A DNA stretch of 64,000 bases from positions 78,705 through 142,704 of IMG/VR virus record IMGVR_UViG_3300025009_000054; one strand, 5' to 3'. A program made the translations under genes and the position numbers. This DNA is from a virus. The number at the start of each line of letters is the position of its first letter. Position 1 is the first letter of the stretch. Positions 1,943 to 59,740 of this stretch are shown piece by piece. Below the pieces are notes generated by a model. The model made no database searches. It was given only the letters and a program-made list of their open reading frames with translations, and was not told the origin of the DNA.

Positions 1943-3196
1943 TTATCTTCCTCCAGGGTTTATTGCTCTTTTGATTCTCATAAGCGAGAACCTGTCATAT
2001 CTTATATCGAGATTATCACGATTAAACCGCATACTCTCGACCTTGGCATTATCACACCAGCCACATTCTATCGTAGACGCAGCATAATTACGACCACTAC
2101 TGTATGTGTTGCCATTAGACATATGACTACATGCTATGATATGTGATGCGAATGCTGGTATATCATCATCGGTTCCAGATGCCTTACATATGTTCTGCAT
2201 CATTTTACCCGTATCAACCCCAAGCGACGCTATCACACTATACATTGATTCAATCATGTAGAGAGTTAAATTATACGCTTCGGGATAGATCATTCTCTCA
2301 TTTGCAGAATTTGTTAAATCCCGCTCGTGCCATGTTGGGATGTTCTCCATCGCAACAACCACGTATGATCTGACCATCCTAGCGAGGGAACATATACGTT
2401 CACATAATCCTGGATTTTTACCAGACTTATGTTTCATTGACGACGACCCAGCCGCAGATTCCTTCGACACCTCATATACCTCATCAATTTCCGGACGAGC
2501 GAGGTTTCTTATCTCTGTTGCAATACGCTCTAGGGTGCTAGCTATAAGTGCTAGCTGACATATATACTTAGCATATACCGATCTATCGACGATCTGCGAC
2601 GACGCTGCCGCTGGATATAGTCCCAGTATATAGCACGCTTTCCTCTCGACATCTGGATCGAGTACATTATACGACCCAACTGGTCCAGACATCTTACCAT
2701 AATACTCGTTAGCATTGAGATCATTGATGTGTCTTGTTATATCCCATATCCAGCTAGCCAATTTGCTAGAAAATTTCATTGGTTCTGCCCACTGTCCATG
2801 CGTCCTACCAATAATTATAGCACCAGAATTATCTTTAGCACACTTCTCTATGGCATTTCTAAATTCGACCAGTGAAGACATTATCTGTGTACCACTACGC
2901 ATACACATTAGCGACATCGATGTATCCATAACATCTGATGCCGCTAGTCCATAGTATACTGGAACGCATTCTGGATATTTATCCTCTACCCATGAGATGA
3001 AACCTATCATTTCATGAACATATTCATTGATAAATGCGTTGATAACTGGTAAGTCACCACCTAATATCTCTGGTATGCATTTTTTGGTAGACAAGCCATG
3101 CGATTTAATTACAGCATTCATAACCTGTGCCCAGGTTTGGTATTTGGATAGATCACTCCAAATACCATTACATTTGGTATCGTATCGGCTAGTCAT
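1943..3196 (-). CDS. purB: Adenylosuccinate lyase (divergent PurB)
   Basis: GRTHGQWAEP, GKMSGPVG, QIVDR, ERIATEIRNL, GSSSMKHKSGKNP (variant of SSxMPxKxN), WHERDLTNSANER. Confidence 0.92.
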   Translation of the reverse strand: MTSRYDTKCNGIWSDLSKYQTWAQVMNAVIKSHGLSTKKCIPEILGGDLPVINAFINEYVHEMIGFISWVEDKYPECVPVYYGLAASDVMDTSMSLMCMRSGTQIMSSLVEFRNAIEKCAKDNSGAIIIGRTHGQWAEPMKFSSKLASWIWDITRHINDLNANEYYGKMSGPVGSYNVLDPDVERKACYILGLYPAAASSQIVDRSVYAKYICQLALIASTLERIATEIRNLARPEIDEVYEVSKESAAGSSSMKHKSGKNPGLCERICSLARMVRSYVVVAMENIPTWHERDLTNSANERMIYPEAYNLTLYMIESMYSVIASLGVDTGKMMQNICKASGTDDDIPAFASHIIACSHMSNGNTYSSGRNYAASTIECGWCDNAKVESMRFNRDNLDIRYDRFSLMRIKRAINPGGR

Positions 3197-3198
3197 TA

Positions 3199-4044
3199 TT
3201 AGCCCTCCACACGCACTAACATCTTAATATCGGTAATACCCTTAACACCTTCTAAATAAGCAAACCCATCATTTATTGACATTAATCGATATCTAGTAGT
3301 ACCATGCAACATACGAACTACATCTCCATCATGCAACTCTACACCATGCGCGTCATCATTTTTACCTGGTGTCACTGGCACGTTACTGATTATAGGAACG
3401 TTAGTACTCCTAAGCAGAGTTGATATACCATCTTCCTCAATGCGACCCCACAAACCGCGCAGTACCAGTATCGATATAATCGCATAGTTCGACATGTCGC
3501 CCATGGTTTCAATTACGCTCTCTCCACCATCATCGAGTTTGTTCTGAAGAATATTGCGCATGCGGCATGTCTTATCATGCATTCGGCTGTGAATGCCAGT
3601 AACACCAACGTCAGATAGGTTCTCATTACTGTATTTTCGACCACGCTCAACCATAATGGATAAGTTGCGATCACACATTTTCTTAACCTGCTGATCTACC
3701 TGCGCTGCATCCATATAGATTAGATTGTCCTCATCGAATAATCCTGACGATGCTACTAGCTGTCCAACAACTCCATATACCGCGATTCGCTTAAATATGT
3801 CTATGGCAGCGCAGCAAGCTTCACGACTAATCTCACTACCAGTATATACACACGGCTTTAGGTTGTCAATATCACCCATACCGACGAGCACTCCAGCGTC
3901 TAACCATAACATCTGACACGATGCCAGTATTCCATCTACCCCTATCCTGCTAACGACTGACATTGAACGTGGTGTATCGGTTAGCATGTTGATCGCAGCA
4001 GCCCCAATACTGTCTACTTCTGTACTAAGTATCGATATTTTCAC
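3199..4044 (-). CDS. Protein with Nmad1/DUF1599 (all-alpha NTP-pyrophosphatase-like) domain
   Basis: Central segment RGRKYS...GIHSRMHDKTCRMRN...ESVIETMGDMSNYAII matches the DUF1599 pattern (K..DYG, R..DK..R, ES..DT..D..NY). Start moved to GTG 4044 behind GGAGG. Confidence 0.7.
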   Translation of the reverse strand: MKISILSTEVDSIGAAAINMLTDTPRSMSVVSRIGVDGILASCQMLWLDAGVLVGMGDIDNLKPCVYTGSEISREACCAAIDIFKRIAVYGVVGQLVASSGLFDEDNLIYMDAAQVDQQVKKMCDRNLSIMVERGRKYSNENLSDVGVTGIHSRMHDKTCRMRNILQNKLDDGGESVIETMGDMSNYAIISILVLRGLWGRIEEDGISTLLRSTNVPIISNVPVTPGKNDDAHGVELHDGDVVRMLHGTTRYRLMSINDGFAYLEGVKGITDIKMLVRVEG

Positions 4045-4045
4045 A

Positions 4046-6742
4046 TTACGCCTCCACACTCTCTTGACTACCAGATGGCATCCCACCACCTAGCGTCGGC
4101 TGACCATCGGATGGCTCAAACCACGAAGTCGTTTCGCCATCCCATACTGCATGGACGATACCTTCTCTGCCACCTCTATTCTTACTAATATTAATTATAT
4201 GTCTGCCATACTTAAATCCAATCTCATTTATGATCTTCTCAGGTTTCTTCTGTGGAATCATGAATGTATCGCAGTCAGCCCATATCTTCTTCGATCCACC
4301 AACATGCTCGGCACCTATCGGATTAAATTCTCTCTTTTGATCCATCATGCCAATAGCTGATGCCGATAACTGTGCGGCACACACAGCAGCTATATCTAAA
4401 TTTCCTGCCATATTTTTAATACCGGTGGATACATCTCTATACTCTGCCCATAGTTCACCTGAGGAATGCGACTCGCTTCCGAGTAGCTGTATGTAATCTA
4501 TAAAGACGGCAGATATATCGTATTTCAGTTTATACAAATGGGTGATAGCTGAAACAGCCTGAATTGATGCACCGTACTTTGTTTCAATAAATATGGGCAT
4601 TTGGCTTATGGCATATGCAGCATCTTTAACCATATCGAGTTCTAACTGAGTTAGATACCCGTACTGCATGGCGTTTATGGTCACACGCTGTCCAAACATT
4701 ATCCATATGAGCATTGAGTATAACCTAGTCATAACGTCACCATCTTCCATCTCCATGTTGACGAAGAGGACAGGTGCACCCTGTAATGCCATGACAAGTG
4801 CTATCTTTAGCATAAGCGCACTCTTGCCTTGTCCAGGCAATGCTCCTATGACGATATACTTCTGTTTCCTGATACCGCCAAGTGTAAGCGATAATGCTGG
4901 GAATTGTGGTCTAAGGTCAAATCCTGGTAACGTGCCTGGATTTGCCACCTGGTTTATGATGAACCTCGTAGTCCTATCGACCAGAGCAATCCTATTGTGT
5001 TCTCCATCACCATCAGATGACCCTCTAACAGCGATGGCAACTACGTCACCGCTTATCTTAGATACTATTTCATCAGATGATATCGACGCGTCAATACACA
5101 TCGACATTGTACCAGTCATTTTTTCATATAGGGTACGTCTCTTATACCTATCGATAATTATATCTAAGCACGACTGCCAATCCTCATACGACGCACTAAA
5201 TACAGCATCGACATTCGTTTGAGATACCAAATTGCCTTTACCAGACGCAACTATATTAGAGTGTACGACATGGGCAGTAGGTACTCCGGCCTTGGCACGT
5301 TCTTCTACGATCGCGCTAAATATGAATTTATTTGAGAATACATAGAAGCAGTCCTCTGTCAGCGACGATACACACTGTGCATATATCTGCTCATTACCAG
5401 CCATAGCCGATAATATTTTATTTTCGGACGTCGCATCAGATAATACTGACGTATCATATATTCCAGACGATACGCATGCAGTAATTGTTTGCTGATCGAT
5501 TCCTACGGCATCAGATATGCATTTACACGCTATTGCTTTGTTAAGTGGACTCAATGTATGGACTCTAGAGCGTACCTTGTTTATGAGCATATGTACATCA
5601 AGCACGTTGTCTACTACTGTATCAAGCATAGACTGTTCTATATAGTATTGAGCAAAATGCGTTGCATTGTTGAGCTTATCATCAATTGACGCAATACCAT
5701 GAGTATTTATGACGTCATCTGGGTCTAGTCCTGGTGGCAATGTTACGATATCTAATATCATGCCATCATCTATACTAAGCTGTGATACTAAATTATATAG
5801 ACCTTTTCTGCCACCAGCATCACCATCCCACATTAGCGAAATTCTAGATGCGCCATATTGTTTAGCAGTCATAACCTGTTCTGGCGATAGGTTGACGTTC
5901 ATAACTCCAACTGTAGATAGCCTATTACATGAATGCATGCGCATCACATCGAAAAATCCCTCTACAGCAATGAGCCGACCACTCTCTCTTATATGCTTTC
6001 GAGCTCTATGCATACCATATAACGGTGATGCAATCGGGTATACAGGAGAATTCCTACTGGTACCAGCCCATTTATCCTTTGATGGCGTCATAGCTCTACC
6101 ACGAAAGAATACTATATCACCCTCAGCATCATGTATCGGGAATATCAACCTCCCACCGAATAGATTATCGTTTGTGAGCTCTAACCTATCAATGGTAATA
6201 TCATCAACACCAGCACTACGCATGGCTACGATAAGGTCATGGGCATGCTCCGTATATCCTAAATTGAAGTCGTCCTGTGTCTGAGACGGAATCTGCCTCA
6301 CATCAGTAACATACTCAACTATCTTTTTATTCTGAAGGTACATCTGGTGCATTACGTCAGCGGCCATACCATTGATTCCGCACAAATAGTCATGCCACTG
6401 TTCCTCTATGGTAGGCTCTCTAAGATAATCTTTGATATCTATATTAAAATCGACACTAAATTGTTCAACAGCTTCTATGAACGTCAATCCTAGATATGCT
6501 TGAATAAATCGTATAACATCTTTTCCATGCTTATCGGAACAGCTACCGAAGCATTTCCATATTTGTTTACGATCGCTTACTACGAAACTAGGGTCATTAT
6601 CAGCGTGGAATGGACAACAGCACCTACTTACGGATCCTGCCTTCTCTAAGACTATATATCTACCAATTGCATCTGATAGTGGAACAGCATTTGATATGAA
6701 CTGGATTAGACCTTGTGGGTCACGAACTCTTAATTTTCCCAT
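4046..6742 (-). CDS. DnaG-type primase fused to DnaB-type replicative helicase
   Basis: CHC2 zinc finger CCPFH...WKCFGSC; TOPRIM VEGFFDV, WDGDAGG and DPDD; DnaB N-terminal region; Walker A GALPGQGKS, NMEM, IDYIQLL, AQL, KNRGG. Confidence 0.93.
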   Translation of the reverse strand: MGKLRVRDPQGLIQFISNAVPLSDAIGRYIVLEKAGSVSRCCCPFHADNDPSFVVSDRKQIWKCFGSCSDKHGKDVIRFIQAYLGLTFIEAVEQFSVDFNIDIKDYLREPTIEEQWHDYLCGINGMAADVMHQMYLQNKKIVEYVTDVRQIPSQTQDDFNLGYTEHAHDLIVAMRSAGVDDITIDRLELTNDNLFGGRLIFPIHDAEGDIVFFRGRAMTPSKDKWAGTSRNSPVYPIASPLYGMHRARKHIRESGRLIAVEGFFDVMRMHSCNRLSTVGVMNVNLSPEQVMTAKQYGASRISLMWDGDAGGRKGLYNLVSQLSIDDGMILDIVTLPPGLDPDDVINTHGIASIDDKLNNATHFAQYYIEQSMLDTVVDNVLDVHMLINKVRSRVHTLSPLNKAIACKCISDAVGIDQQTITACVSSGIYDTSVLSDATSENKILSAMAGNEQIYAQCVSSLTEDCFYVFSNKFIFSAIVEERAKAGVPTAHVVHSNIVASGKGNLVSQTNVDAVFSASYEDWQSCLDIIIDRYKRRTLYEKMTGTMSMCIDASISSDEIVSKISGDVVAIAVRGSSDGDGEHNRIALVDRTTRFIINQVANPGTLPGFDLRPQFPALSLTLGGIRKQKYIVIGALPGQGKSALMLKIALVMALQGAPVLFVNMEMEDGDVMTRLYSMLIWIMFGQRVTINAMQYGYLTQLELDMVKDAAYAISQMPIFIETKYGASIQAVSAITHLYKLKYDISAVFIDYIQLLGSESHSSGELWAEYRDVSTGIKNMAGNLDIAAVCAAQLSASAIGMMDQKREFNPIGAEHVGGSKKIWADCDTFMIPQKKPEKIINEIGFKYGRHIINISKNRGGREGIVHAVWDGETTSWFEPSDGQPTLGGGMPSGSQESVEA

Positions 6743-6751
6743 TTATTGCCC

Positions 6752-9444: not shown

Positions 9445-9445
9445 A

Positions 9446-10717
9446 TTATCTCCCTCCATCTGTGAACTCAATCAGGTATTTTGGATTTATCTGATCAGTT
9501 CTATACACAATCCACTCATTGTTCATTACTCCAGACTTATTTGCTTTCGCAAAAGTGGAGTCATGCCCACTCTTTGGTAGATTCTCGCCATAGTTATTTG
9601 GTACGTAATATTTGCCCATTGCCACATCACAAAGGAACATATAGCATGAGCTACTTCTAGTACCAGACCAATACCCATCTGAGTAATTCAACGCTTTGGT
9701 TGATTGGTCTGATGTATATATGCCATTGCCAAACATACGCCCAGTACAATATGGAGCATTACTTGGTGGGATAATAAAACCTTTTTGCATAATACTTAAT
9801 AGATTTCCAGACCTAGTACCATGCCATCCATCCCATATATTAGGTAGATTTGCTCCATAATTGGCAAAAGCATTCGACATGGATGCTATCTCAACCTTAA
9901 ATACCTTATGTGGACGAAGTCTAGAGCTTGAATGCATACTTTGTTGGGTAGATACATAGAGCTTTGTTATACGATCGATAACACTCTTGTCAGTAACTAA
10001 ACTTAATGATACCTCAAATAATTTTGGCTCTTCATTAGGTTCATTACCACTAGATACTACCATCTGAACAGATGACTCAAGAGAATCTAAAATACTATTT
10101 TGCTTTTGAATAGCATCAATATTTGGATATAGGTACTTAAGATTGGGTTTCCTCATACCTATATTCTGTGGGATAAGTTGTAGGTACTCGTTAACAGAAT
10201 CTATGAACGAAGGTGATTCATAATCATTGACTATCACATATTTACTTATACTATCAAGTAATAATCTGGCACATGAAATAGCCTCTGCCGTAACTACTCC
10301 AAGCGGTGTAGAATATGTGCCACGGCTTTCATCGTACTGTATTGTGGTATTGGAGAGGATGTTATGTCGATTTACACTGACAAGATACGAAACCAAATCT
10401 CTGGTTTCGTTATTATCTGTTTGTATCTGTCCTGTTGCCACTTGCGCCAGTCTTCCTGACGTAACTGTTTTACCGCTCTCCGTAGAGGTACCCCGTATAG
10501 TTTGCGTCGCCTTGTAACCATGGGATCCCTTCTCAATGACCTTTTGGTCATAGAAACCTTTGCCATGGCCAATGACTTTTCTTTGGCCACTATATCCGAC
10601 ACGGCCCCAGTGAGTTTCTACTGCACCGTCGTCATATAAATAAATAGACCAAAACTTATTATTGTTTTCACTAACATCTGCCTTATTAAAATGACGCTCT
10701 TCCACTATATTTGCCAT
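9446..10717 (-). CDS. Poly(ADP-ribose) polymerase-family protein (WGR + helical regulatory + catalytic domains)
   Basis: WGR: NNNKFW...HWGRVG; helical domain PLG...YLQLIPQ; catalytic WHGTR, GRMFGNGIY, KALNYS, FLCDVAMG, NNEWIVY, QINPKYL. Confidence 0.93.
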   Translation of the reverse strand: MANIVEERHFNKADVSENNNKFWSIYLYDDGAVETHWGRVGYSGQRKVIGHGKGFYDQKVIEKGSHGYKATQTIRGTSTESGKTVTSGRLAQVATGQIQTDNNETRDLVSYLVSVNRHNILSNTTIQYDESRGTYSTPLGVVTAEAISCARLLLDSISKYVIVNDYESPSFIDSVNEYLQLIPQNIGMRKPNLKYLYPNIDAIQKQNSILDSLESSVQMVVSSGNEPNEEPKLFEVSLSLVTDKSVIDRITKLYVSTQQSMHSSSRLRPHKVFKVEIASMSNAFANYGANLPNIWDGWHGTRSGNLLSIMQKGFIIPPSNAPYCTGRMFGNGIYTSDQSTKALNYSDGYWSGTRSSSCYMFLCDVAMGKYYVPNNYGENLPKSGHDSTFAKANKSGVMNNEWIVYRTDQINPKYLIEFTDGGR

Positions 10718-10814: not shown

Positions 10815-11204
10815 CTATGTCAAGCTTGACTCTAAAGCATGCTTATCATCCTGAGCAGATGTAGAGCCAGCTCCCATACCACCCTTGTCTGGATCACTAG
10901 CCCAATCACGCTTAAATACCTCTGTTGATACTTCGGTAATCGCGTCCTGCAAATCTATGCCCTCGGCACTACAATACCCAGCTAGAAATACTATAACATC
11001 AGCAACAGCGTCTCTAGCCTTTGATAGATATGTCTCTCTTGTCATGCCACGTATACCCTGAACACTCTTTAGATGCGCGTGTGCTAATTCACCTATTTCC
11101 TCTACGGCTCCAAGTAGACAGTGATACGGCACTTGCTCACCAAAATTCCTATCAGACCACTCCTTTTGATTTCTCTGTAATTCTCGAAATGTTAGCTCAC
11201 TCAC
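10815..11204 (-). CDS. MazG-like nucleotide pyrophosphohydrolase (MazZ candidate)
   Basis: ELQ...W..RNF, EEIGELA, DAVADVIVFL, GIDL, KRDW: single-domain all-alpha NTP-PPase. Confidence 0.85.
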   Translation of the reverse strand: MSELTFRELQRNQKEWSDRNFGEQVPYHCLLGAVEEIGELAHAHLKSVQGIRGMTRETYLSKARDAVADVIVFLAGYCSAEGIDLQDAITEVSTEVFKRDWASDPDKGGMGAGSTSAQDDKHALESSLT

Positions 11205-14137
11205 AGTGATAGTACCTCATACCCTTCATCAGTCGCGTATTTTACCCTATTTCTATGATGCTTCGATAGATACCTACAATTCATATCGGCAATGTCAAGA
11301 ACAAGACCATTCTTCTTATCAGGTCTATTTGGATCTTTCCTCATGACACGACCAACACGCTGTATATACATGCCACGCTCAGCACCATCAACCACCACAA
11401 TTAAGTCTAAACTAGGAACATCAACACCCTCATTAATGAGTGTAGTTATCATGCATTTAAGCTCACGGCTCTTAAGTTTAGTAAATGCACGTTTTCTATC
11501 GCCTTTACTATCACTACTAATAAGCAAGATAGCACCAGGTATTAGGGGTAGTAAATTTTTACCATGCTCCACTTTACTAATAGCTATAGCTACAGTAGAT
11601 CCACTATCCATAGCACGTATTACACTATCGGCTATCATTTGGTTACGTTCTGCATTGTCTATAATGAGTTGTCTATAGACATCGTTATATGATATGTCAA
11701 TTTCCTTACGACATTTTGGACAATAACCTTTGTGGCCTACGAACGATGCTGAGAATTCGATTACATTACCACATTTGCCCTTACCGACCTTAGTTGGGCA
11801 TATAACCTTAATAATATTTTTAGAATGATCAAATTTCTCGCACCTGATAATGGGCGGGACCAATATTCCAGCATCTATAATCTCTTTTGGACGTGCCATA
11901 TACAGCATCCTCGGAAGAGCCGCTTCAATAAGCAGGTCTGTGTCATCGTCACGGTAAGGCGTCGCTGAGTTATGTACTAATACCCCATTAGCCACAAACG
12001 ATGGATGCCCATCCATTTCTAAATCATATACATAGTCGATACTATCAAATACTGATAGTCCAGTATCCTTGATTTGCACCTCATTAAATGAGTAGTTACT
12101 ATGGCAATATTTTGATCTTGTACCGCTACGACCATTATTCTTACCATTCATAGCATTAGTAGACCATGTTACTATATATGACGGATGTTTACCGATAATT
12201 TTCCTACCATACACAGTTCCACCATCACGTGGTCCGGATTTTGGTGATGTAGATCCCGAAACACCTATACTACGAAGCAAACACAGAATATCCATAACTA
12301 ACTTATAGGATGTCGTGGTGTAATAACACCTTTTGCGATTTCTCGATCTTTCTGCACTATGACCATCAGAATCTATTAATCCATTTAATAATTGACGTCT
12401 AGACTGATATGACCATGAAAAAAGACACTCACCTGGTATATGCTTCGTTAAATGGTTTACCTTACCAAAATACGATTGGAATATATCGACTAATATAGCA
12501 CTATTTATCTCTACCTGGGTAGATCCATCTCGTTTATCAAGTGTTAGATTACAATGTAGCCATGACATACTATTCACTTTACTGATAAATGCATCAACAT
12601 CTTCACTACATATCGAAAAACACAATTGATTTGTATCTATCCAACCATCTCCAATAAAATAGCCCATAATATATGCTAAATCTACAGTTGGAATGTACGC
12701 ATCCACCCACCCACCATGTGAATTACCAGAATAGATCCTAGTTGGTTTTGGCAATATATTTTTATGTTGTTTATATATACTTAACGACAAATAGTGTCCA
12801 TACTGACCACGATTCCTAAACCTAAACCATGCTTTTGGGTCCAAATTTAATGCTCGACGATTAGTACTCGTCAAATCAACACATACTAGGGTTCCTGAGT
12901 CATCAGCTCTATCTGACGCGTCGATCATATCAATACCACGATCACACCAATCTATTCCATCATCTCCAATTAATACATCACCAATAATCAAATCCTGGGC
13001 TGATGCTTCAGACACTATAACCTGATGTTTGGTATCTCCAATATTTCTACCACCAGGTACTATCTTATATATGGAATGATCATTCGTCGTATTTAGCCAA
13101 GTTCCGTATACACGTACACCTGGTAGCTCACTAGATGCCGGTACATGCCTAATAAAATTTTTGATAGGTTTCCATGCAAACTTATCACCAGTCCAACCAC
13201 GTGACATTATGCCCTGACCAGATACATCTATAATCTCATATCCATCAGATGTTATATGTGATGCCATGTCAGTACAAGAAGCAATATAGAAAGCATCTGC
13301 GATTTTACAATGTTGTCCAGTCCCAAAAGGACCACCAATAAGCTCTACATACGATTCGCTATGAACTGATAAACCTACGCGTACGTCGGCCTCGGAAAAG
13401 GCTCCGAAGGTATCGAAAACTGTCTGGGCTCGTAGGTGGTGCATTTCATCGCAAAACACGACTCTCGTGTTTTTAATCATATTCTTAAGGTCATTTGTCC
13501 GATAATCGTCCTTTGAACTCATGATCTTACCAATAGTCTGCAATGTCGCAACAGTCACCACATTAGGTTCAAATACAGTATCACCAACTATTCCAATACC
13601 GGTACTCGGTAAATACTCCTTAAATGATTCATATGTCTGATATAAGAGCTCTATATTATGTACCAGAAACACTGATGGAACACCCATTTCAGCTATGGCG
13701 TGAGCGGCAAGTAGTGTCTTACCAGACCCAGTAGGGAGACATATCACGCCACATTTCTTCTCAAGTATTGCTTGACACGCGGCCTTCTGATAATCTCTAG
13801 GATCTCTATTGGGTGTCCAATCGAACTTATCCTCATACCCCTTCTGAATACGATGGTCAATAATATCAATCTTAATATCTGGTCTAGCCTTAGATATAGC
13901 CCATTTTACTCTATCGACAAGTCCTGTTGGAAATTCATATGTGTCAGAGTTAAAAACTGATACAATGCCCGACATATTCTTTTGTGCCCATTTAGACCTA
14001 TGTTTAAACCCAGGATCCTTATATGAGCACACTGAGCACGCATGGCCTACAGCATTTATTGGGTCGTAATCGCACTCTTCAATAATTATTTTACTATACG
14101 CAGACCTTACATCTATTTTCATTACTGGTTTCCCCAT
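11201..14137 (-). CDS. SF2 DNA helicase (UvsW/XPB-like) interrupted by an intein
   Basis: Q motif PRDYQ, LPTGSGKT, DEMHH, motif III GL|SATP split by the intein, EGVDVP, QRVGRVMR; extra CxxC-type zinc ribbon in the C-extein. Confidence 0.92.
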   Translation of the reverse strand: MGKPVMKIDVRSAYSKIIIEECDYDPINAVGHACSVCSYKDPGFKHRSKWAQKNMSGIVSVFNSDTYEFPTGLVDRVKWAISKARPDIKIDIIDHRIQKGYEDKFDWTPNRDPRDYQKAACQAILEKKCGVICLPTGSGKTLLAAHAIAEMGVPSVFLVHNIELLYQTYESFKEYLPSTGIGIVGDTVFEPNVVTVATLQTIGKIMSSKDDYRTNDLKNMIKNTRVVFCDEMHHLRAQTVFDTFGAFSEADVRVGLSVHSESYVELIGGPFGTGQHCKIADAFYIASCTDMASHITSDGYEIIDVSGQGIMSRGWTGDKFAWKPIKNFIRHVPASSELPGVRVYGTWLNTTNDHSIYKIVPGGRNIGDTKHQVIVSEASAQDLIIGDVLIGDDGIDWCDRGIDMIDASDRADDSGTLVCVDLTSTNRRALNLDPKAWFRFRNRGQYGHYLSLSIYKQHKNILPKPTRIYSGNSHGGWVDAYIPTVDLAYIMGYFIGDGWIDTNQLCFSICSEDVDAFISKVNSMSWLHCNLTLDKRDGSTQVEINSAILVDIFQSYFGKVNHLTKHIPGECLFSWSYQSRRQLLNGLIDSDGHSAERSRNRKRCYYTTTSYKLVMDILCLLRSIGVSGSTSPKSGPRDGGTVYGRKIIGKHPSYIVTWSTNAMNGKNNGRSGTRSKYCHSNYSFNEVQIKDTGLSVFDSIDYVYDLEMDGHPSFVANGVLVHNSATPYRDDDTDLLIEAALPRMLYMARPKEIIDAGILVPPIIRCEKFDHSKNIIKVICPTKVGKGKCGNVIEFSASFVGHKGYCPKCRKEIDISYNDVYRQLIIDNAERNQMIADSVIRAMDSGSTVAIAISKVEHGKNLLPLIPGAILLISSDSKGDRKRAFTKLKSRELKCMITTLINEGVDVPSLDLIVVVDGAERGMYIQRVGRVMRKDPNRPDKKNGLVLDIADMNCRYLSKHHRNRVKYATDEGYEVLSL
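11969..13369 (-). mobile_element. Intein (467 aa) with LAGLIDADG homing endonuclease in helicase motif III
   Basis: Begins SVHSESYV (Ser1), block B TTNDHS, IMGYFIGDG and LLNGLIDSDG, ends YVYDLEM...NGVLVHN followed by Ser+1; removal restores GLSATP. Confidence 0.92.
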
Positions 14138-14485: not shown

Positions 14486-15298
14486 TCATACGCCATATAA
14501 ATCTAGATTTATAATCGCGTTTTTATATGTAGCCTCTACTAAGTCATTTCCTGTATAGTTTCTCCCCTCTTGTAACGAAGCTATACCCATACTAGCAGTA
14601 CCACAAAATGGATCTATTATGGTCTGTCCAGGGTCTGTATATGTAAGAACTAACCTTCTACATATCTCAATTGGTAACTGGTTTAGGCCAAGACGAGGGC
14701 TCCCCTTCTTATGAAATGATCTAGATATGGTACTACATATATCGGAGATCAATCTACCACCAGGATTCCTCTTATCCTCTTTACCACCATAATCAGATAG
14801 ATACTTCTTACAATGTCTACATACTACATGGGGTTCACGTATGCGATGAAACGTCGACTCATATTCACTGAACCTATCATTCGGCATCCTACGCTTTCTA
14901 AGGACTAAGAACGCATAATGCCTAGGATATAGACCATACTTTTTGGGTCGAGCCCCACTAGGTGCATCCCAAGCTATCCAATGTGCGAACTCTATCCAAT
15001 GATTTGTGCATATCTGCGCACCAGCCATCATAGTCTCATATGGCATGTGATGTAGTATGATCCATCCACCTGGCTTCACAGCAACAGCAGCATCTTCAAC
15101 CCAACGATAGAGTTTTGATAAGTATATCCCATTATCTATACTGTCATTGACACTATCACCATACTGTACGTCTAAATTGAATGGTGGATCAAGAAATACC
15201 ATATCTGGCCTATTATTGCGACTAAGGATTGACTTTATAAAATCGTTATATTCCTTATTATGCATTTCATACGGCATTATTAGATATCCTTTAACCAT
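14486..15298 (-). CDS. Amino (N4-C/N6-A) DNA methyltransferase, beta-class order
   Basis: Catalytic DPPF N-terminal, SAM-binding DPFCGTAS C-terminal, internal CRHC. Confidence 0.88.
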   Translation of the reverse strand: MVKGYLIMPYEMHNKEYNDFIKSILSRNNRPDMVFLDPPFNLDVQYGDSVNDSIDNGIYLSKLYRWVEDAAVAVKPGGWIILHHMPYETMMAGAQICTNHWIEFAHWIAWDAPSGARPKKYGLYPRHYAFLVLRKRRMPNDRFSEYESTFHRIREPHVVCRHCKKYLSDYGGKEDKRNPGGRLISDICSTISRSFHKKGSPRLGLNQLPIEICRRLVLTYTDPGQTIIDPFCGTASMGIASLQEGRNYTGNDLVEATYKNAIINLDLYGV

Positions 15299-18070: not shown

Positions 18071-19297
18071 TTAAGCTACAATGCTAGTTAGCTTAGTATC
18101 AAGCAATCTTAGCTCTTCAACCGTAAGCATATTGATATCGGCTGTTCTTCCATTGCTAGCATCCTTGATGTAAGACGCCAGCTCTGCAAAATTACTGCCA
18201 GTATCAAGTTTACGAAGCTTATCAGCAACTGCAGTACCGATTACTACCCTCTCATCAACCGGTGCCTGAGGAGGATGAACGGTTGCTGTCGGTACAGACG
18301 TCATGTTGACAAGTGCCATATCAAACGCACTCTTTAGCAGGCCAGCAGGAAGACCTGTACTGAACTCTGTCGCGTACTGTCGGTCCATTGACACTATATC
18401 CCCGACCGTCTTCCCAGGGTACTTTCCCGTTGGGCATACAATAGCTACCGCCTCATTCGGGTTTATCCTGATTTCTGATGGTCCAGGAGTGCCCATATCA
18501 CCAACTGGTCCGGACTGACCAAACTGGCCGTTAGGCATCGCAGGTGGTGGTCCGTAGGACTGCATTGGCATCGGAGCAGGTGCCCCGAACTGCTGTCCTG
18601 GTTGTGGTGCACCGAACTGCTGTGGCTGTCCGTATGACTGCATCGGAGCCGGTGCACCGAACTGCTGTGGCTGTTGTGTTTGCATACCGAACTGCTGTGG
18701 GGGAGCAGCCATTCCACCCATATTACCAACTGGCATATTAAGCTGTTGGATTAGCATTTGAATCTGTTCCATGCTTTTAGCCTGGAGTTCATCTACGGCA
18801 TCAATATCAATGAGGTCTGCTTCATTGAACTGAATCGGAGCCTGATTAGCCATAGGAATGACAGTATACTGTCCACCTTTAGCCTGTGGCCTTGTGATAA
18901 TGAAATCCACACAGGACACATCTTTATTATACGCTGTGTAAATAGCACCAATCGGATTCCAAATCTGCGTACCACCAACAAGAACCTTATGCTCAGGTTT
19001 AGGTGTATCGAGGACTAGCACGTTACATGCATGTCTCATTGCAGAAGGAAATCTCTGTCTATTCACGCACATTGGGCAAAGACCCTGGCCAAGGCACTTC
19101 TCGTAGCCTCTCCACTGTCCCCTACCATTTTCACCTTGTGGGTTATATTCATACAGCGAATGACCCCACCAGCTACACAGGTCACCAAACTTCGGATGGC
19201 CTGGTACAAAGAGCAATCTCACTCTATGAGACTCTCCAGCTTTGAATTGCAGAAGCTTACCGCTCCCACCGACTCCGTTTACGTCATTAAAAGACAT
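18071..19297 (-). CDS. gp32-like single-stranded DNA-binding protein with a Q/P/G-rich low-complexity linker
   Basis: Start re-called at ATG 19297 (GAAGGGAG). RVRLL, zinc ligands H..C..CPMC, RHACNV, DFIITR...QYTV; QQFG repeats; PTGKYPGK motif; next to recA. Confidence 0.72.
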   Translation of the reverse strand: MSFNDVNGVGGSGKLLQFKAGESHRVRLLFVPGHPKFGDLCSWWGHSLYEYNPQGENGRGQWRGYEKCLGQGLCPMCVNRQRFPSAMRHACNVLVLDTPKPEHKVLVGGTQIWNPIGAIYTAYNKDVSCVDFIITRPQAKGGQYTVIPMANQAPIQFNEADLIDIDAVDELQAKSMEQIQMLIQQLNMPVGNMGGMAAPPQQFGMQTQQPQQFGAPAPMQSYGQPQQFGAPQPGQQFGAPAPMPMQSYGPPPAMPNGQFGQSGPVGDMGTPGPSEIRINPNEAVAIVCPTGKYPGKTVGDIVSMDRQYATEFSTGLPAGLLKSAFDMALVNMTSVPTATVHPPQAPVDERVVIGTAVADKLRKLDTGSNFAELASYIKDASNGRTADINMLTVEELRLLDTKLTSIVA

Positions 19298-19389
19298 TCG
19301 TAATCTCCCTTCAGGAATTTGAATTTTGTCTGAACTATGTATAAACCCAGAGCCAACGAACATGCAAACCGACGTTGGCCCCGTAGATA

Positions 19390-20592
19390 TCAGTACTTGC
19401 TTTGATAGGCCGGTTCGAAGTCCCTCTTATATCCAGGCTTCGATGATGATTCAGGCGATAGTATGCCGGATTTGAATGCAAACTCTCTAAGTTTACCTGG
19501 ATGCATAGTGATTATATGTTCTGGGCGTGGACCCGTACTTAGCCACCCAATAGAATCAAATAAATCATATTCTGCAGCGAATTTGGCCACCCATTCTTTA
19601 CTAACCTGGGACAGACCTTCCCAAGCATTTTTACCATAGTCAATCGCGGCGATATAATCTATGAACGTGACCATTATCGATCCTGGTCGATTAATAGCAA
19701 GGGCTTTTCTAAACAATTTAGGACTAATCTCACCAACTCTTCTAACTCTCTTCGTAACAGTCGTCATTTCAATAACAGGCTTAGACGATCCACTACGAGT
19801 CTGAATTTCTTCCCACGTGAGTTCCTGAACATTCTCGTCTTCATACCCAAATGGTCCACTGTTGCCAGCAACCCTAATTGGATATGTTCTCATAACACCA
19901 TATATACTACGTACGGACATTGGTGATAGTCCAGCTTCTGCAAGCCAGTTTGCTGCGTTTGTATCTCTGGACGTAGTTTTTGGATATAAACCATGGTACA
20001 TCGATAAAGCCATTCCCTGAGTTCCTTCGAGCATAACGGGAAATCCATTGTTTACCATATTATTGAGTATCATGCATGTATCGCCGATGTAGGGTTTAAG
20101 ATAACTCACATCTTTGGCTAAGGTCACATCACCCTGCCTTTTAATCCTATCAATGAGAGCCGCACCACACCCTTCACGTGTACTACCAATAGCTTCGAAC
20201 AGATCTTTACTACCATCTTTTCCATGCTCAGCATCAATATGTTTCTGCTCAATCAGAATGGCATTTGGATCAATGACGAGTCTACCATCATCCCATACCT
20301 TTTCTTCCTTCAGCCAACCGATTTCCCGATCTAGTACGGTTGGAATAATCATAGCACCAGCACCAATTACGAGCTGTGCTTTTGGTGCCGCTATAGACCC
20401 GCATGGAATGGTTTGAAAAGCAAGCTTCTTCTTTCCATCTTTACTATAGACATAATGGCCAGCATTCGGCGATCCTGTACGCACTAAAGCACCATTATTA
20501 TATTGCCCAGCAATATGTTCACACAATTTTCCTTTTGCTTCAGAACCAAATGCGAGTCCGACGACGATATCTACGCACCTATTAGTGATCAT
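19390..20592 (-). CDS. purZ: PurZ0-like N6-succino-2-amino-deoxyadenylate synthetase (PurA family)
   Basis: GSEAKGK (Ser where PurA has Asp), PNAGH, IGST, LEGTQG, YPKTTSRD, RTYPIRV (Ile where PurA has Thr), TTVTKRVRRVG, TFID and STGP. Confidence 0.82.
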   Translation of the reverse strand: MITNRCVDIVVGLAFGSEAKGKLCEHIAGQYNNGALVRTGSPNAGHYVYSKDGKKKLAFQTIPCGSIAAPKAQLVIGAGAMIIPTVLDREIGWLKEEKVWDDGRLVIDPNAILIEQKHIDAEHGKDGSKDLFEAIGSTREGCGAALIDRIKRQGDVTLAKDVSYLKPYIGDTCMILNNMVNNGFPVMLEGTQGMALSMYHGLYPKTTSRDTNAANWLAEAGLSPMSVRSIYGVMRTYPIRVAGNSGPFGYEDENVQELTWEEIQTRSGSSKPVIEMTTVTKRVRRVGEISPKLFRKALAINRPGSIMVTFIDYIAAIDYGKNAWEGLSQVSKEWVAKFAAEYDLFDSIGWLSTGPRPEHIITMHPGKLREFAFKSGILSPESSSKPGYKRDFEPAYQSKY

Positions 20593-25793: not shown

Positions 25794-27146
25794 TTAACTA
25801 ATTATCATAATAAGTCCTACCACTACACTTGTAACTGTAGACGAACTATCAACAATAAATTCAAGCACATCCCCTGCCGATACAGCGATTGATAACCCAG
25901 TTGCTTCATTTTTTTGTGCAGTAGACAATGTAGGTTTACCACTTGCAAATAATGTGGCATTTGTCGGATAACCAGCATACGTCGAAGCGTGAACATCCAC
26001 AACTATACTTCCGCTTTGATCTGCAAATATAGTCCAACCAGTAATAGTACCAGCATAAGGTATACTAATAAAACCCTTACTACCTGTGGTAATTGCTACA
26101 CCACCGCCATTAATAACATATGGAACACCTCTAATTTGCATATTATCAGTCGGCGTGTAGGTTGTTCCGTCAGTACCAGCGACGCCTTGTATTCCCTGTT
26201 CTCCTTGTATACCTTGAATACCCTGTTCTCCTTGAATACCCTGTTCTCCTTGTGGTCCTTGTGGTGCTGAGAATTCTAACCAATTAGTAGGGTCTTCTTT
26301 AGGTGCATTGATATCTTCGTTTATTATATTCTGACAAAAGTATATACTATTAATGCCAGTAAAGTCAGATGATTCCGCCAATACATAATCACCAACAACA
26401 TATGAATCACCGTATACCCATTCACCTTTATATATAAGCGATTCTCCATCTACGCCTTGTATGCCCTGCTCACCTTGTATACCCTGTATACCAGTATCGC
26501 CTTTCGCACCTCTCGGTGCGCTAAATTCTAACCAATTTGTAGAGTCTTCTTTCGGTGCAACAATATCGTTAATTAAAATATCTTGGCAAAAGTATATTGA
26601 ATTATAACCAAGAGCGGTAGAAGATTCGGCAATTACATAATCACCAGAATCATAGTCACTGCCTGATAGCCATTCACCTTTATATATGAGTGATTGCCCA
26701 TCTGCTCCAGCCGCTCCAGCCGCTCCAGGTTCACCAGGTACTCCAGCCGCTCCAGGCTCCCCAGGTACTCCAGGTACTCCAGCCGCTCCTTGTGACAATG
26801 GTACCAAGTAAATAGAATCACCAATAATTAGTGTGTTACCTGTTGGTATAGAGATATTATTACAAATACAATATCTATCACTTCCATTCGCAACAGCAAC
26901 ATACACTACGACAGAATCAGTATCTAGATTAACAATTTTTACATCCTTAATCATTCTAACTGTACCAGCCACAGGTGTTGTTGCTGCAACCACTTCTGTT
27001 GCATTATTCAATGTGCCATAAATACTGCCAGGTGTAAACCCACTTGCATTATTATCACCATATGTTGTTGAAAATTGGGGTTGATTTTCTGACACATTAC
27101 CACCCAATTTTATCACTAATGTATTGCCATGAATTAAATTAATCAA
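25794..27146 (-). CDS. Collagen-like fibre protein with two CBM5/12-like repeats
   Basis: Three Gly-X-Y blocks separated by two ~65-aa repeats SLIYKGEW..GDYV.AESS..NSIYFCQ..APKED.TNWLEFSAP. Confidence 0.78.
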   Translation of the reverse strand: MINLIHGNTLVIKLGGNVSENQPQFSTTYGDNNASGFTPGSIYGTLNNATEVVAATTPVAGTVRMIKDVKIVNLDTDSVVVYVAVANGSDRYCICNNISIPTGNTLIIGDSIYLVPLSQGAAGVPGVPGEPGAAGVPGEPGAAGAAGADGQSLIYKGEWLSGSDYDSGDYVIAESSTALGYNSIYFCQDILINDIVAPKEDSTNWLEFSAPRGAKGDTGIQGIQGEQGIQGVDGESLIYKGEWVYGDSYVVGDYVLAESSDFTGINSIYFCQNIINEDINAPKEDPTNWLEFSAPQGPQGEQGIQGEQGIQGIQGEQGIQGVAGTDGTTYTPTDNMQIRGVPYVINGGGVAITTGSKGFISIPYAGTITGWTIFADQSGSIVVDVHASTYAGYPTNATLFASGKPTLSTAQKNEATGLSIAVSAGDVLEFIVDSSSTVTSVVVGLIMIIS

Positions 27147-27176
27147 TGTATTATCCTAATCTAATTTTCTATATGG

Positions 27177-29021: not shown

Positions 29022-29257
29022 ACCTCTCCACTATTGCCACAGATCGCTATGCCACAGATCGCTATGCCAGTACCGGTACCAGGCAATATATCCACTGGGA
29101 TTGGTACAAAAAATAATTGTGAATTGATAGCCGTAATATCATCATTATGAGATTGACTAATACTAGTAGTAGAATCAGTATCAAGCGACACGGATTTATT
29201 TACGATATCTATCATACTATCTATGCGTCTTTTTTCATATATTTTAAAGATACGCAT
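29009..29257 (-). CDS. Small tail-associated protein
   Basis: MRIFKIYEK...; C-terminal [11 protein letters not shown] from a 15-bp tandem repeat. Confidence 0.6.
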
Positions 29258-29262
29258 GAAGA

Positions 29263-29427
29263 TTAGCTACTTCCCTTAAAATATGTCTGAGAATTCGCAG
29301 CGGTCATTTTTTTGCCATATGTACGGTTTATGGTGGTACATAGGTCAGTACGATGCCCAATAGTACCGTTAATAACCTCATTAGCCTGTTTACTATATTT
29401 TTTCTCATAAATCTTATACTGTCTCAT
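29263..29427 (-). CDS. Small protein (54 aa) with an N-terminus similar to the downstream gene; not in the ORF track
   Basis: AGGAG RBS; MRQYKIYEKNIVKQANEVIN... to TAA at 29263. Confidence 0.62.
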   Translation of the reverse strand: MRQYKIYEKKYSKQANEVINGTIGHRTDLCTTINRTYGKKMTAANSQTYFKGSS

Positions 29428-29436
29428 GTCGCACTC

Positions 29437-54531: not shown

Positions 54532-54549
54532 AGTACCTCCGATGTACGC

Positions 54550-55914: not shown

Positions 55915-56096
55915 GCGGACCCTCCATATGAGAAAATTACCGCCTCAGCATGTGTTCACTTATACCGCACAGGGCAGCACACCAATATAATAGTCGAACA
56001 TACTCATTACAGGCGTTTGCCCTACTATGCATATTGGATTATAAATCGATTATGTTATATTGATAAATGGGATAAAGATTAGGGAGGACTGTAGAG

Positions 56097-57381: not shown

Positions 57382-57400
57382 TTAATATGGAATTCTAATA

Positions 57401-57868: not shown

Positions 57869-57956
57869 GGAAGCACCTCCTAGTGATATAGTAGTGGTGT
57901 TTTGATGGAGGATGGTATGTATGGGGCCAATCCTGGTTGGGCTACTTATTAAGGGG

Positions 57957-57991
57957 CTGGTGGCGCAATGTGGTATGCATTGCGCCACCAG
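57957..57991. terminator. 14-bp perfect hairpin after the ligase gene
   Basis: CTGGTGGCGCAATG-N7-CATTGCGCCACCAG. Confidence 0.65.
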
Positions 57992-57996
57992 TGTAT

Positions 57997-59172
57997 CTAT
58001 AGTATATCTCGTTCAGGTCTAACAGCAACACCTACCGCAAATTGAGGGATACCGTCTTTAGTAAGGTCTTGATATCTCACCGTAAGCCACTTACCGACAT
58101 AGTTATCGGAGTGTGCGCGGAAATCGTGCCATATTCTTTGTCTTTCGGTGAGTTCACCCTCAGGATTCACGGTAAATGTGACGCCCGATGTAGTCATGCA
58201 GACGTACATGGCACACTCGGCGTGACTTCCAGTACCGTTCGTCACATCGATTATCCTAAACTCACCATCTTTAAAGTCCTTAAGTTTCTGGAGCTCTGCC
58301 ACACGATGGCCGAATTTATATTGCCCATCATATGACCGAATGATAGTACCCTCGAATCCCCACTTGGTAAACCGTGAGTGATACATCATGACGTCAGCTT
58401 CATCTTGACAGAGGTATGTTGGTACACGTCGAATACTACCTGGTGCTACAATACTGGCAAACATGTTATCGAGCCGTATATTACGTTGATAAAATGGATC
58501 ATTTTCATCCATAGTATCAAATATCCAGTACTGTAGGTTACTACTAGCGTACTCACTATCGTCAGGGTAGTACTTACTGATTGCGTGAGACGTATCCTGC
58601 AATAGTCTAAACTTTGGTATTGGGTCATTCTCTGTACCGCGAACCGTCAATAATAATTCACCATCGGTAGGAGCACCACCAAGTATATGTGCTTTCATCG
58701 GTATATGCTGTACAACCTCTGGTATGTGTGGTAGACCAGTCCTTGTCCACCAATCATCACCATCAGTACCAGCTCGTTCACCGTTCAGCTTAGGTTGTGC
58801 CCAACATGGGTATTTTACACGATGTTTTGCATCGGTAAACTTGAGAGCCTTCATAGCTAGCGGTTTACCGGAATATACTTCGCCTTCACCAACGTAGCTC
58901 TCATCACGTTTCTTTTTCATACGTGAGTTCATTTCAGATAATGCCTGATCATGCGGTGTTGTCTCATTAGCCTTACCAATATTCTTTGGTATCGCCATTT
59001 TAGGTATACTCGATACCATCTTCGAATATCCAACACCACCAGAAAGTTCTGACCAAGTAGTTGTGGTCACGTAACAGTTCTCACCATCAGTAACCACCTG
59101 ACCCATCCAATATTGATTAAGACCACTCACGTTCTTCTTATGCAGGATTGGTGTTTCATTCAGGATCTGCAT
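57997..59172 (-). CDS. ATP-dependent DNA ligase
   Basis: QPKLNGER (adenylated Lys), DGEL, IFD, EGTIIR, LQKLK, LTVRYQDLTKDGIP; start re-called at ATG 59172 (GGAGG). Confidence 0.93.
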   Translation of the reverse strand: MQILNETPILHKKNVSGLNQYWMGQVVTDGENCYVTTTTWSELSGGVGYSKMVSSIPKMAIPKNIGKANETTPHDQALSEMNSRMKKKRDESYVGEGEVYSGKPLAMKALKFTDAKHRVKYPCWAQPKLNGERAGTDGDDWWTRTGLPHIPEVVQHIPMKAHILGGAPTDGELLLTVRGTENDPIPKFRLLQDTSHAISKYYPDDSEYASSNLQYWIFDTMDENDPFYQRNIRLDNMFASIVAPGSIRRVPTYLCQDEADVMMYHSRFTKWGFEGTIIRSYDGQYKFGHRVAELQKLKDFKDGEFRIIDVTNGTGSHAECAMYVCMTTSGVTFTVNPEGELTERQRIWHDFRAHSDNYVGKWLTVRYQDLTKDGIPQFAVGVAVRPERDIL

Positions 59173-59740
59173 CACTACCTCCAATATCCTCTGTACCAAC
59201 AGGCACGTTGATCTCCTGCTCGTCCACTTCTAATTCATCGGAGAACATTCTGAGCATTTGCCCAAGTCTTATTACAGCATCAAGGTGTGGAAACCATATA
59301 TTTAATTCACGATCAGCCGATTCAACAGAATCTGATGCGTGAATTAAATTTTTTGGCAACTCGCCACCAAAATCCCCACGAATTGTACCCTTTTCCGCTT
59401 TAGACGGATCCTTGTTACCTATCATATCGCGTACCACCTGTACGCAATTCTCGCCCTCGACTGCCAATAGGAGTAATGCACCGGACATCATATGATCTAT
59501 GTTACGCTGGTAGAAATCTTTACCCTCATGCTCAGCGTAGAGTTCTTTCAGAGCTTTTAGTATTTTGCCATTTTCATCGTGTGTGGGGTCTATCATGGCA
59601 TAGTGCAGACACCCTATACCAGCATTTTTGAATCGATCCATAATTTGATCTGCAGTACATGGATCGATTCCAGCCTTGATATCTTCATTACTTCTCTCTA
59701 ACGCGTCCGGTTTTAGTATTATTAACGTTCTCTGAATCAC
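59156..59740 (-). CDS. ndk: Nucleoside diphosphate kinase
   Basis: RTLIILKPDA, YAEH, MMSG, GTIRGDFG, NLIHASDS (phospho-His). Confidence 0.95.
   Translation of the reverse strand: MIQRTLIILKPDALERSNEDIKAGIDPCTADQIMDRFKNAGIGCLHYAMIDPTHDENGKILKALKELYAEHEGKDFYQRNIDHMMSGALLLLAVEGENCVQVVRDMIGNKDPSKAEKGTIRGDFGGELPKNLIHASDSVESADRELNIWFPHLDAVIRLGQMLRMFSDELEVDEQEINVPVGTEDIGGSDADPE

Follow-up and report, generated by a model that had tools for sequence, protein, structure and literature searches.

Genomes containing 2-aminoadenine (Z) have been documented in small phages that replicate with PolA (DpoZ) or PrimPol and that borrow PurB, Gmk, and Ndk from the host (PMC8342488, PMC12884076, PMC12783734, bioRxiv 2025.10.22.683976). 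Could a large phage with another kind of replicase also make Z, and do so with a lyase of its own? The question is raised by a 64,000-nucleotide stretch of viral DNA (here, the window), which forms the last 64 kb (positions 78,705 to 142,704) of the 142,704-bp IMG/VR record IMGVR_UViG_3300025009_000054 and carries both a PurA homologue with PurZ-type residues and a PurB-like lyase. We consider it reasonably probable that this uncultured phage runs a variant of the Z nucleotide pathway, with DnaE replication, a PurZ-type synthetase of a third lineage, a lyase of its own, and noncanonical helpers that clear deoxynucleoside triphosphates (dNTPs). From gene identities, residue patterns, phylogeny, and recurrent linkage, we infer the probable substrates and donor nucleotide of this pathway and the likely, though far from certain, presence of Z in the phage DNA. 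The two genes at its center are the following:

19390..20592, minus strand: PurA homologue of the Ser type, 400 aa, a candidate PurZ-like succino-amino-deoxyadenylate synthase (PF00709, E = 8.9e-48)
1943..3196, minus strand: PurB-like adenylosuccinate lyase, 417 aa (Lyase_1, E = 1e-28; TIGR00928, 242 bits)

These and the other genes named in a sequence-only reading of the window are all present, on the minus strand, at the coordinates listed here and below.

Residues and phylogeny of the synthetase

The gene at 19390-20592 had been read as a PurA-family member with PurZ-diagnostic substitutions, and that reading of the residues was right (S17, F15, T277, W260, and a loop insert). The P-loop of the synthetase is GLAFGSEAKGK, with Ser17 at the position of the catalytic Asp13 of PurA, a residue conserved in 99% of the PurA group and replaced by Ser in all 147 phage PurZ/PurZ0 sequences (PMC12884076). 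In an alignment of 71 sequences together with aligned PDB matches, S17 is accompanied by five further PurZ-type marks: F15, P238, W260, G268, and T277. The segment YPIRV is followed by AGNSGP, a two-residue insert after Arg-Val (RVAGNSGP), and TVTKRVRRV (within TVTKRVRRVGE) stands where PurA has TTGRxRRxGW, TVTK(K/R)xRR replacing TTGRxRR as it does in PurZ. These marks match S14, F12, T262, P233, W252, and G256 of the phiVC8 enzyme as well as its loop insert after RV. They are common to the PurZ of phiVC8 and S-2L, the PurZ0 of Archimedes, Wayne, and Ghobes, and the window synthetase, and they are lacking in Asp-type PurA. Neither canonical PurA hallmark (Asp13 in GDEGKG, and TTGRxRRxGW) is present, the corresponding stretches reading GSEAKG and TVTKRVRRVGE.

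The marks have been tied to substrate choice. In phiVC8, F12, T262, and P233 belong to a pocket that favors the 2-amino group and disfavors a 2'-OH, and crowding of the 2'-OH has been ascribed to the insert that follows R-V (PMC8342488; bioRxiv 10.1101/2025.10.22.683976). In the metaGPA study, 28 of the 29 PF00709 proteins on dZ-enriched contigs cluster with PurZ (bioRxiv 10.1101/2025.10.22.683976). Every residue that is known to distinguish the two enzymes points to PurZ rather than PurA, and the synthetase is predicted to be of PurZ type. Its donor site consists of F310-D312-Y313. D312 occupies the position of the Asp in PurA and PurZ0 and of N297 in phiVC8; classical PurZ has Asn or Gln there. 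The donor site therefore appears to be of the GTP type.

To place the enzyme, we compared it with its homologues. Among 5.8 billion proteins searched, the nearest homologues have Ser in 120 of 120 cases, and so do 124 of the 128 readable cluster representatives at 50% identity (143 checked, the motif being unreadable in 15). In a maximum-likelihood tree rooted on Asp-type PurA (support given as SH-aLRT), the Ser-type proteins form one clade (support, 95) that includes the synthetase. Within it, the synthetase belongs to a 25-row clade of metagenomic proteins from long contigs (support, 97) and falls in neither the PurZ0 nor the PurZ clade (support, 100 each). The synthetase's clade is bracketed by two halves of the tree, one holding PurZ0 and the other PurZ, and this bracketing provides a moderate phylogenetic argument for the use of dGMP.

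PurZ0 was reportedly defined by Tong et al. in Nature Microbiology in 2023. The sequence-only reading had called the window enzyme a PurZ0, an assignment that the tree does not bear out: forcing the synthetase together with the PurZ0 of Wayne, Ghobes, and Archimedes, a group that was named after inspection of the tree, costs 48.6 log-likelihood units (approximately unbiased [AU] test, P = 0.018). Monophyly with PurZ is not rejected (AU test, P = 0.117), and the clade is on the PurZ side of the tree. On these alignments, the synthetase is PurZ0-like in its donor site yet outside the PurZ0 clade, and it represents a third viral clade. The members of this clade, among them IMG/VR 3300033145_001136, 3300033149_003588, 3300009506_000019, and 3300032516_000004, come from phages of 100 to 180 kb, all of which encode a DnaE-type polymerase. 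They share a gene order of synthetase, a protein of 380 to 550 aa, RecA, nuclease, helicase, sometimes a PRA-PH gene, and primase-helicase.

The lyase and its pairing with Ser-type synthetases

The gene at 1943-3196 is, as previously read, a Lyase_1 protein with purB as its best family, although its score for TIGR00928 is below the 326-bit cut-off. Its best solved structural match is the adenylosuccinate lyase of Thermotoga maritima (1C3U, E = 2e-61). The reading frame is intact and retains the catalytic His of RTHG, the second His, and the loop Ser. In place of SSxMPxKxN, the signature loop reads GSSSMKHKSGKNP, with Pro changed to Lys and a two-residue insert. No ADSL_C domain was detected in the protein, the matches ending near residue 341 of 417. 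In a PurB tree the window lyase sits on a long branch (1.43), suggesting that it is fast evolving. The class II ribonucleotide reductase (RNR) reported directly downstream of purB was also confirmed as NrdJ, with a TIGR02504 score above the cut-off; its whole open reading frame (ORF) in the contig is 752 aa and runs past the start of the window.

Co-occurrence of purZ0 and purB across viral databases had been proposed as a check; for PurZ-like genes in general, it was found from both directions. PurB-like genes occupy roughly 170 to 190 places among 2.9 million IMG/VR contigs, and a PurB (Lyase_1) is nevertheless present in 5 of the 26 IMG/VR viral records that have a PurZ-like gene, so the co-occurrence is not due to chance. 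In the closest relative of the window, Lyase_1 lies directly upstream of the synthetase. In the reverse direction, 80 viral PurB loci were taken as the starting point, and 33 of them proved to have a PurA-family gene no more than 10 kb away. The partner within that distance is of the Ser type at 12 of the 80 loci, including one classical contig with GSTGKG and DatZ as well as the locus of the cultured Streptomyces phage Hiyaa, and is a normal Asp-type PurA at about 17 to 20.

A PurB with a canonical Asp-type PurA about 1 to 2 kb away or closer is found in at least 17 viral contigs (L232, L240, L244, L247, L248, L251, L253-L255, L259-L264, L268, L269, and L275). We regard these as plain auxiliary pairs for AMP synthesis and as a useful control set. 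Like the window genes, such pairs (L240, L259-L264, and L275) have synthetase and lyase together, and the window PurB is nearest to this group; unlike the window synthetase, theirs keep GDEGKG and a PurA-type pocket. Phages wanting AMP thus use the Asp form, which argues that a Ser-type pair is not simply an AMP booster. The PurB tree requires at least four separate origins of Ser partnership. The lyase would therefore have been recruited repeatedly and independently to PurZ-type synthetases, and this recurrence argues for a completed two-step conversion.

Our literature search found no published description of a phage's own PurB in a Z pathway and no published PurZ gene accompanied by a family C replicase. 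The set of a phage-encoded PurB and a PurA-like gene is not itself unique, as Streptomyces phage Hiyaa is already so annotated in GenBank (MK279841, L276, 49800-56661; gp67 PurA-like, gp69 NDT-dUTPase, gp76 PurB-like, and PolA). Streptomyces phages Keanu and Spocter were grouped with Hiyaa as a PurA-like/PurB-like system. Like the window phage, Hiyaa has a PurB of its own and a Ser-type synthetase, which in Hiyaa are about 5 kb apart; it also has an NDT-Dut fusion, to which the Dut-domain protein of the window phage is a candidate counterpart. By tblastn alone, its synthetase is nearest to a PurZ0 reference among six PurA/PurZ queries (311 bits to Wayne PurZ0). Unlike the window phage, Hiyaa is an 83-kb actinophage with PolA, a PurB of another lineage, and no NDK. 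It may serve as a cultured stand-in for the pairing of PurZ and PurB.

Helper proteins, kinases, and the replicase

Further genes for nucleotide metabolism lie beside the lyase, within the replication block, at the far end of the window, and just before it:

3..1940, minus strand: class II (B12-dependent) ribonucleotide reductase NrdJ (TIGR02504, 645 bits)
3199..4089, minus strand: DUF1599 (Nmad1)-like protein, 296-aa ORF (DUF1599, E = 0.0034)
10815..11204, minus strand: candidate MazG/HisE-like NTP pyrophosphatase, 129 aa (PRA-PH, 21.4 bits; PHROG 715)
59156..59740, minus strand: nucleoside diphosphate kinase (NDK), 194 aa, with an insert and an acidic tail (PF00334, E = 3.9e-36)
59765..60268, minus strand: dCMP deaminase, adjoining NDK (PF00383, E = 2e-22)
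Contig 76346-77239, 1.5 kb before the window, co-directional with the RNR/PurB run: Dut-domain fusion, 297 aa

The MazG-like gene directly follows an intein-bearing helicase gene. Its product matches PHROG 715 ("MazG-like pyrophosphatase," E = 2e-6) and, pairwise, S-2L MazZ (E = 0.001) and an Acinetobacter phage dATP/dGTP pyrophosphohydrolase (E = 7.5e-5). VEEIGE and ADVIVF are candidates for the acidic site, the profile match being at threshold. Homologues with 39 to 46% identity are fused to NDT-like domains 1 to 4 kb from PurZ-like genes (L118, L150, and L183).

The DUF1599-like protein, whose true start is probably at or below 4044, has a conserved all-alpha core at about residues 116 to 216 of the 296-aa ORF. 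Homologues directly follow PurZ-like genes in six viral contigs (L122, L123, L125, L128, L130, and L142), where DpoZ-like PolA and DutZ-like genes are present too. Two of the six homologues are fused to an NDT domain, and the L122 protein (35% identity) scores 26.9 against the family, passing the cut-off of 25. An AlphaFold2 (AF2) model of the core is all-alpha (pLDDT, 79). Its best structural match is AF_0060 (2P06; Z = 8.8; root mean square deviation of 3.6 over 85 residues); chains of PRA-PH and MazG proteins come next, with Z of about 6. Foldseek returned no significant match to the model (best E = 1.3), with MazG and PRA-PH chains dominating the top of the list, and a profile search against PDB sequences found none for the core. 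The model thus weakly suggests a helical-bundle likeness to PRA-PH/MazG. The sequence-only reading had counted two all-alpha pyrophosphatases: the genes are there and the DUF1599-like model is all-alpha, whereas the family assignments are weak on their own, with a PRA-PH score of 21.4 bits against a cut-off of 21.3 and a DUF1599 (PF07659) score of 18.1 bits, below its cut-off.

The third helper candidate is the Dut fusion, whose gene belongs to the same tight co-directional run as those for ThyX, RNR, PurB, and the DUF1599-like protein. Its Dut domain is 39% identical to Wayne DutZ, and a homologue search with the fusion returned only Dut-domain relatives. The N-terminal part contains both NDT hallmark motifs in reversed order. 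When circularly permuted, it matches a DmtZ/NDT profile as a single stretch (probability, 88.7%; E = 2.6e-6); in the native order, hhalign yields no more than two short matches (E = 1.7e-4 and 7e-4). DmtZ (NDT type) and DutZ (Dut type) are the characterized dATP/dAMP-clearing set of the PurZ0 phages (PMC12884076), and elsewhere the DUF1599-like and MazG-like families sit beside, or are fused to, NDT (DmtZ-like) domains near PurZ-like genes. Next to PurZ-like genes in IMG/VR contigs, NDT domains are joined to Dut as well as to these two families (L122:11016-11786, L142:9078-9956, L183:2677-3381, L150:2144-2929, and L118:11286-12569). The pattern suggests that Dut, DUF1599, and MazG-like domains may be three interchangeable dNTP-pyrophosphatase partners of an NDT enzyme.

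The NDK at 59156-59740 is a clear one (124 bits to PF00334), with the catalytic His kept in the motif NLIHASD at residue 131. It is present in this record alone among the 26 with a PurZ-like gene. Because it lies beside the dCMP deaminase gene and 39 kb from the synthetase, it looks, together with RNR, ThyX, and Dut, like part of a general dNTP supply. The window had been said to contain no monophosphate kinase, HD-domain DatZ, or DNA polymerase, and this holds. In the rest of the contig, a search for these genes found a polymerase of the DnaE type (Pol III alpha, 1,053 aa, with a PHP domain) upstream of the window and neither a nucleoside monophosphate (NMP)/guanylate kinase nor DatZ. Two candidates were rejected: a small HD protein (contig 29245-29691) considered as DatZ is (p)ppApp-hydrolase-like (7SMG, E = 5e-18), and a Walker-A protein (63157-63972) considered as an NMP kinase is an AAA ATPase. 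The claim of a near self-contained pathway was therefore overstated, since no dZMP/GMP kinase or DatZ was found in 142.7 kb. The phage does encode its own PurB and NDK, as claimed for steps normally borrowed from the host, but the kinase was not found and the NDK, in 1 of 26 records, looks general. The pathway is extended rather than self-contained.

Across the same 26 records, DnaE occurs in 12, including every member of the synthetase's clade, and a dUTPase in 13; HD_3 (DatZ) occurs only in three small DnaE phages. Records of 35 to 53 kb (those behind L115, L147, L166, and L170) combine a PurZ-like gene, a DnaE-type polymerase, Dut, and an HD_3 DatZ-like gene, and one small DnaE phage of this group (G039) also has PurB. 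These small phages appear to represent a further Z-cluster architecture with a family C replicase.

How does this gene set compare with the known pathways? In actinophages such as Gordonia phage Archimedes (PDB 7VF6), Ghobes, and Arthrobacter phage Wayne, the PurZ0 pathway involves DutZ, DmtZ, DUF5664-1, and DpoZ-1; dutZ is present in all 98 PurZ0 genomes, usually with dmtZ and the DpoZ-1 PolA (PMC12884076). The window synthetase is 34 to 37% identical to PurZ0 and shares its Ser for Asp13, FGSEAKG P-loop, AGNSG loop, TVTxKxRRVG motif, and GTP-type Asp, and the phage has a Dut-domain protein whose N-terminal part may be NDT-like. It differs in its donor site (F-D-Y versus M/F-D-Q), its replicase and size (DnaE and at least 143 kb versus PolA and about 40 to 45 kb), its own PurB and NDK, the permuted order of its putative NDT motifs, and the MazG-like and DUF1599-like helpers that replace DUF5664-1.

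The classical Z-cluster, for which Vibrio phage phiVC8, Acinetobacter phage SH-Ab 15497, and cyanophage S-2L are the references, consists of PurZ, DatZ, and MazZ or DUF550, plus DpoZ or PrimPol. The same dGMP-pocket residues and a candidate MazG-family helper are found in the window phage. Unlike the classical enzymes, which have GST and an Asn or Gln of the ATP type, its synthetase has a GSE P-loop and Asp312, and no HD-type DatZ, PolA, or PrimPol was found in the contig. In addition, PurB and NDK are phage encoded here and host borrowed in the classical systems (PMC8342488).

Proposed pathway, alternatives, and neighboring genes

In the pathway that we propose, the MazG-like, DUF1599-like, and Dut-domain proteins would convert dGTP and dATP to monophosphates, and the Ser-type synthetase would condense dGMP with aspartate, probably with GTP as the donor (Asp312). 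The PurB-like lyase would then release fumarate to give dZMP. A host kinase, or one encoded in the missing 18% of the genome (CheckV completeness of the record, 82%), would produce dZDP, from which the phage NDK would make dZTP, along with other dNTPs from the class II RNR. The DnaE-type (Pol III alpha) replicase would put Z opposite T. Removal of dATP and dAMP, the task of DmtZ-DutZ in PurZ0 phages, would fall to the NDT-like/Dut fusion encoded just before the window. More tentatively, and as a possibility that we would not yet call probable, this proposal can be extended to the 100- to 180-kb DnaE (family C) phages in general. In these, adenine would be largely or wholly replaced by 2-aminoadenine, made by the third PurZ-type lineage. 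The present phage would in addition have acquired a fast-evolving PurB, apparently drawn from the pool of viral PurA/PurB pairs, and would clear dATP with the permuted NDT-Dut, MazG-like, and DUF1599-like proteins in place of DatZ.

Several observations weigh against a Z pathway. The synthetase scores 214.7 bits with the NCBIfam PurZ model NF038379, short of the cut-off of 300, and scores higher, at 257 bits, with the archaeal PurA model PRK04293, whose cut-off of 368 is likewise not reached. In the PurB tree, the window lyase groups, on its long branch, with PurBs partnered to Asp-type PurA. NDK, RNR, ThyX, dCMP deaminase, and Dut are also carried by large phages with ordinary DNA, and in the 142.7-kb contig we found no NMP/guanylate kinase, DatZ/HD_3, DUF550/DUF5664, PolA, or DpoZ. 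The window encodes a beta-class DNA methyltransferase (14486-15298, minus strand; PF01555, motif IV DPPF) that is probably of the N6-adenine type. The NDT assignment of the Dut fusion comes from a permuted alignment and is a lead, and the AF2 model of its N-terminal 170 aa is unusable (pLDDT, 36).

The Ser-type marks themselves extend well beyond phages. In cellular genomes, they occur in at least 557 places, in many phyla and in nonphage operons (L028-L107; for example, L038:6001-8701 and L045:3809-7679). In one operon type, the synthetase is followed by a dCTP-deaminase-like (DCD-like) gene and a dNK-like kinase gene. In another, an M78 peptidase with capP-like and DarG-like parts precedes the synthetase, which is followed by DUF7002 and is itself often fused to an N-terminal P-loop kinase; an adenylate-kinase-like family is among the fusion partners of PurZ-like proteins in cells. 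These operons look like nucleotide-pool modules, possibly for defense; they are absent from PADLOC 2.0, and PADLOC gave no match for the window synthetase or PurB. In one 2.2-Mb cellular genome, the Ser-type gene is the sole PF00709 gene. Because mostly cellular members share them, the residue marks define a very large family rather than a proven activity, and the chemistry is known for two subclades only, which calls for caution.

One alternative, then, is that the synthetase acts on a guanine nucleotide without producing a full Z genome. It might yield partial Z, drain or reshape the dGTP/dATP pools against nucleotide-based host defenses, or make an undescribed purine nucleotide, as the cellular members may. 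The cellular operons, with their dCTP-deaminase-like, dNK-like, M78-peptidase, DUF7002, and kinase-fusion components, resemble pool-manipulating modules of this kind. The phage has no recognizable dATP triphosphohydrolase or Z-selective PolA, and it carries other counterdefense genes (Gad1, an ADP-ribosyltransferase, and the ppApp-hydrolase-like HD protein). However, the repeated independent recruitment of PurB points to a completed adenine-type conversion rather than mere depletion, and the NDT/Dut-type helpers are those of the characterized PurZ0 pathway (PMC12884076). We regard this alternative as unlikely, although it is the strongest that we considered.

Less likely still is an ordinary purine-boosting pair that would turn IMP/dIMP into AMP/dAMP and, through RNR and NDK, into dATP for normal DNA. 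Viral Asp-type PurA and PurB pairs do exist, the window PurB groups with their lyases, and the best NCBIfam match of the synthetase is the archaeal PurA model; the cellular genome with a sole, Ser-type PF00709 gene and the lack of any detected DatZ or Z-specific polymerase in the contig point the same way. Against this stand the Ser in place of Asp13 (99% in PurA; PMC12884076), five other pocket residues of the PurZ type, and a loop insert expected to crowd a 2'-OH. Moreover, AMP-making viral pairs use the Asp form, and MazG-like, DUF1599-like, and NDT-like/Dut families accompany PurZ-like genes. That the genes are an unrelated, chance assembly of nucleotide metabolism genes in a large phage, with a decaying PurB, is very improbable: the genes are spread over 58 kb, NDK is restricted to this record, and the long-branched PurB has a changed signature loop and lacks a recognizable ADSL_C domain, but the catalytic His and Ser and the frame of PurB are intact, its linkage to PurZ-like genes recurs far above background, and the DUF1599-like, PurB, RNR, ThyX, and Dut fusion genes form one tight run.

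If the broader proposal for the large DnaE phages is true, Z-DNA extends beyond small sipho- and podoviruses and can be copied by a replicase of the Pol III type; the case poses the question of whether polymerases of this type handle dZTP. The case places an enzyme of the PurZ type in large phages that form a clade apart and replicate with a family C polymerase, and it shows that a phage's own PurB has been coupled several times to PurZ-type synthetases. The MazG-like and DUF1599-like helper families, both often NDT fused, are now linked to PurZ-like loci.

The wider gene content is as follows. Nearly all genes of the window are on the minus strand, and its GC content is about 41%. A megablast search with 25 kb of the window as the query found no DNA-level match among GenBank phages. 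A replication and nucleotide block is followed by structural genes. The block contains the class II RNR, PurB-like lyase, DUF1599-like, primase-helicase, UDG, PARP-like, MazG-like, intein-bearing helicase, methyltransferase, RusA, RecA, and PurA homologue genes; ligase, NDK, and dCMP deaminase occupy the far end. Upstream in the contig are ThyX, the 297-aa protein with its C-terminal dUTPase domain, a DHH protein, methyltransferases, glycosyltransferases, a giant sigma fusion, Gad1 (E = 2e-67), RtcB, and an ADP-ribosyltransferase (ART-PolyVal). The rest of the genome also encodes a HAD_SAK_2 domain, a CoaBC-like flavoprotein, and several Ros/MucR-like proteins.

Between the synthetase gene and recA lies a gene for a 430-aa protein (18071-19363, minus strand) whose counterparts always occupy the position between the PurZ-like gene and recA (L108:11270-12652, L109:11279-12418, L110:11989-13644, and L111:11855-13330). 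Its conserved N-terminal domain of about 200 aa is joined through a low-complexity linker rich in Q and P to a short C-terminal part that is also conserved. The protein matched no family and was rejected as the missing kinase, having no P-loop; it is likely a DNA-binding or recombination partner. The PARP-like protein (9446-10717, minus strand; PF00644, E = 2.6e-26) has WGR, regulatory, and catalytic domains, and its gene lies between the MazG-like and UDG genes. The helicase (11201-14137, minus strand) is UvsW-like (ResIII/DEAD) and contains an intein that carries a LAGLIDADG homing endonuclease; the helicase of relatives lacks this 500-aa insert. Lastly, two adjacent proteins with collagen triple-helix repeats (25794-29021, minus strand; PF01391, E = 2e-45 for the one of 614 aa) are probably tail fibers.

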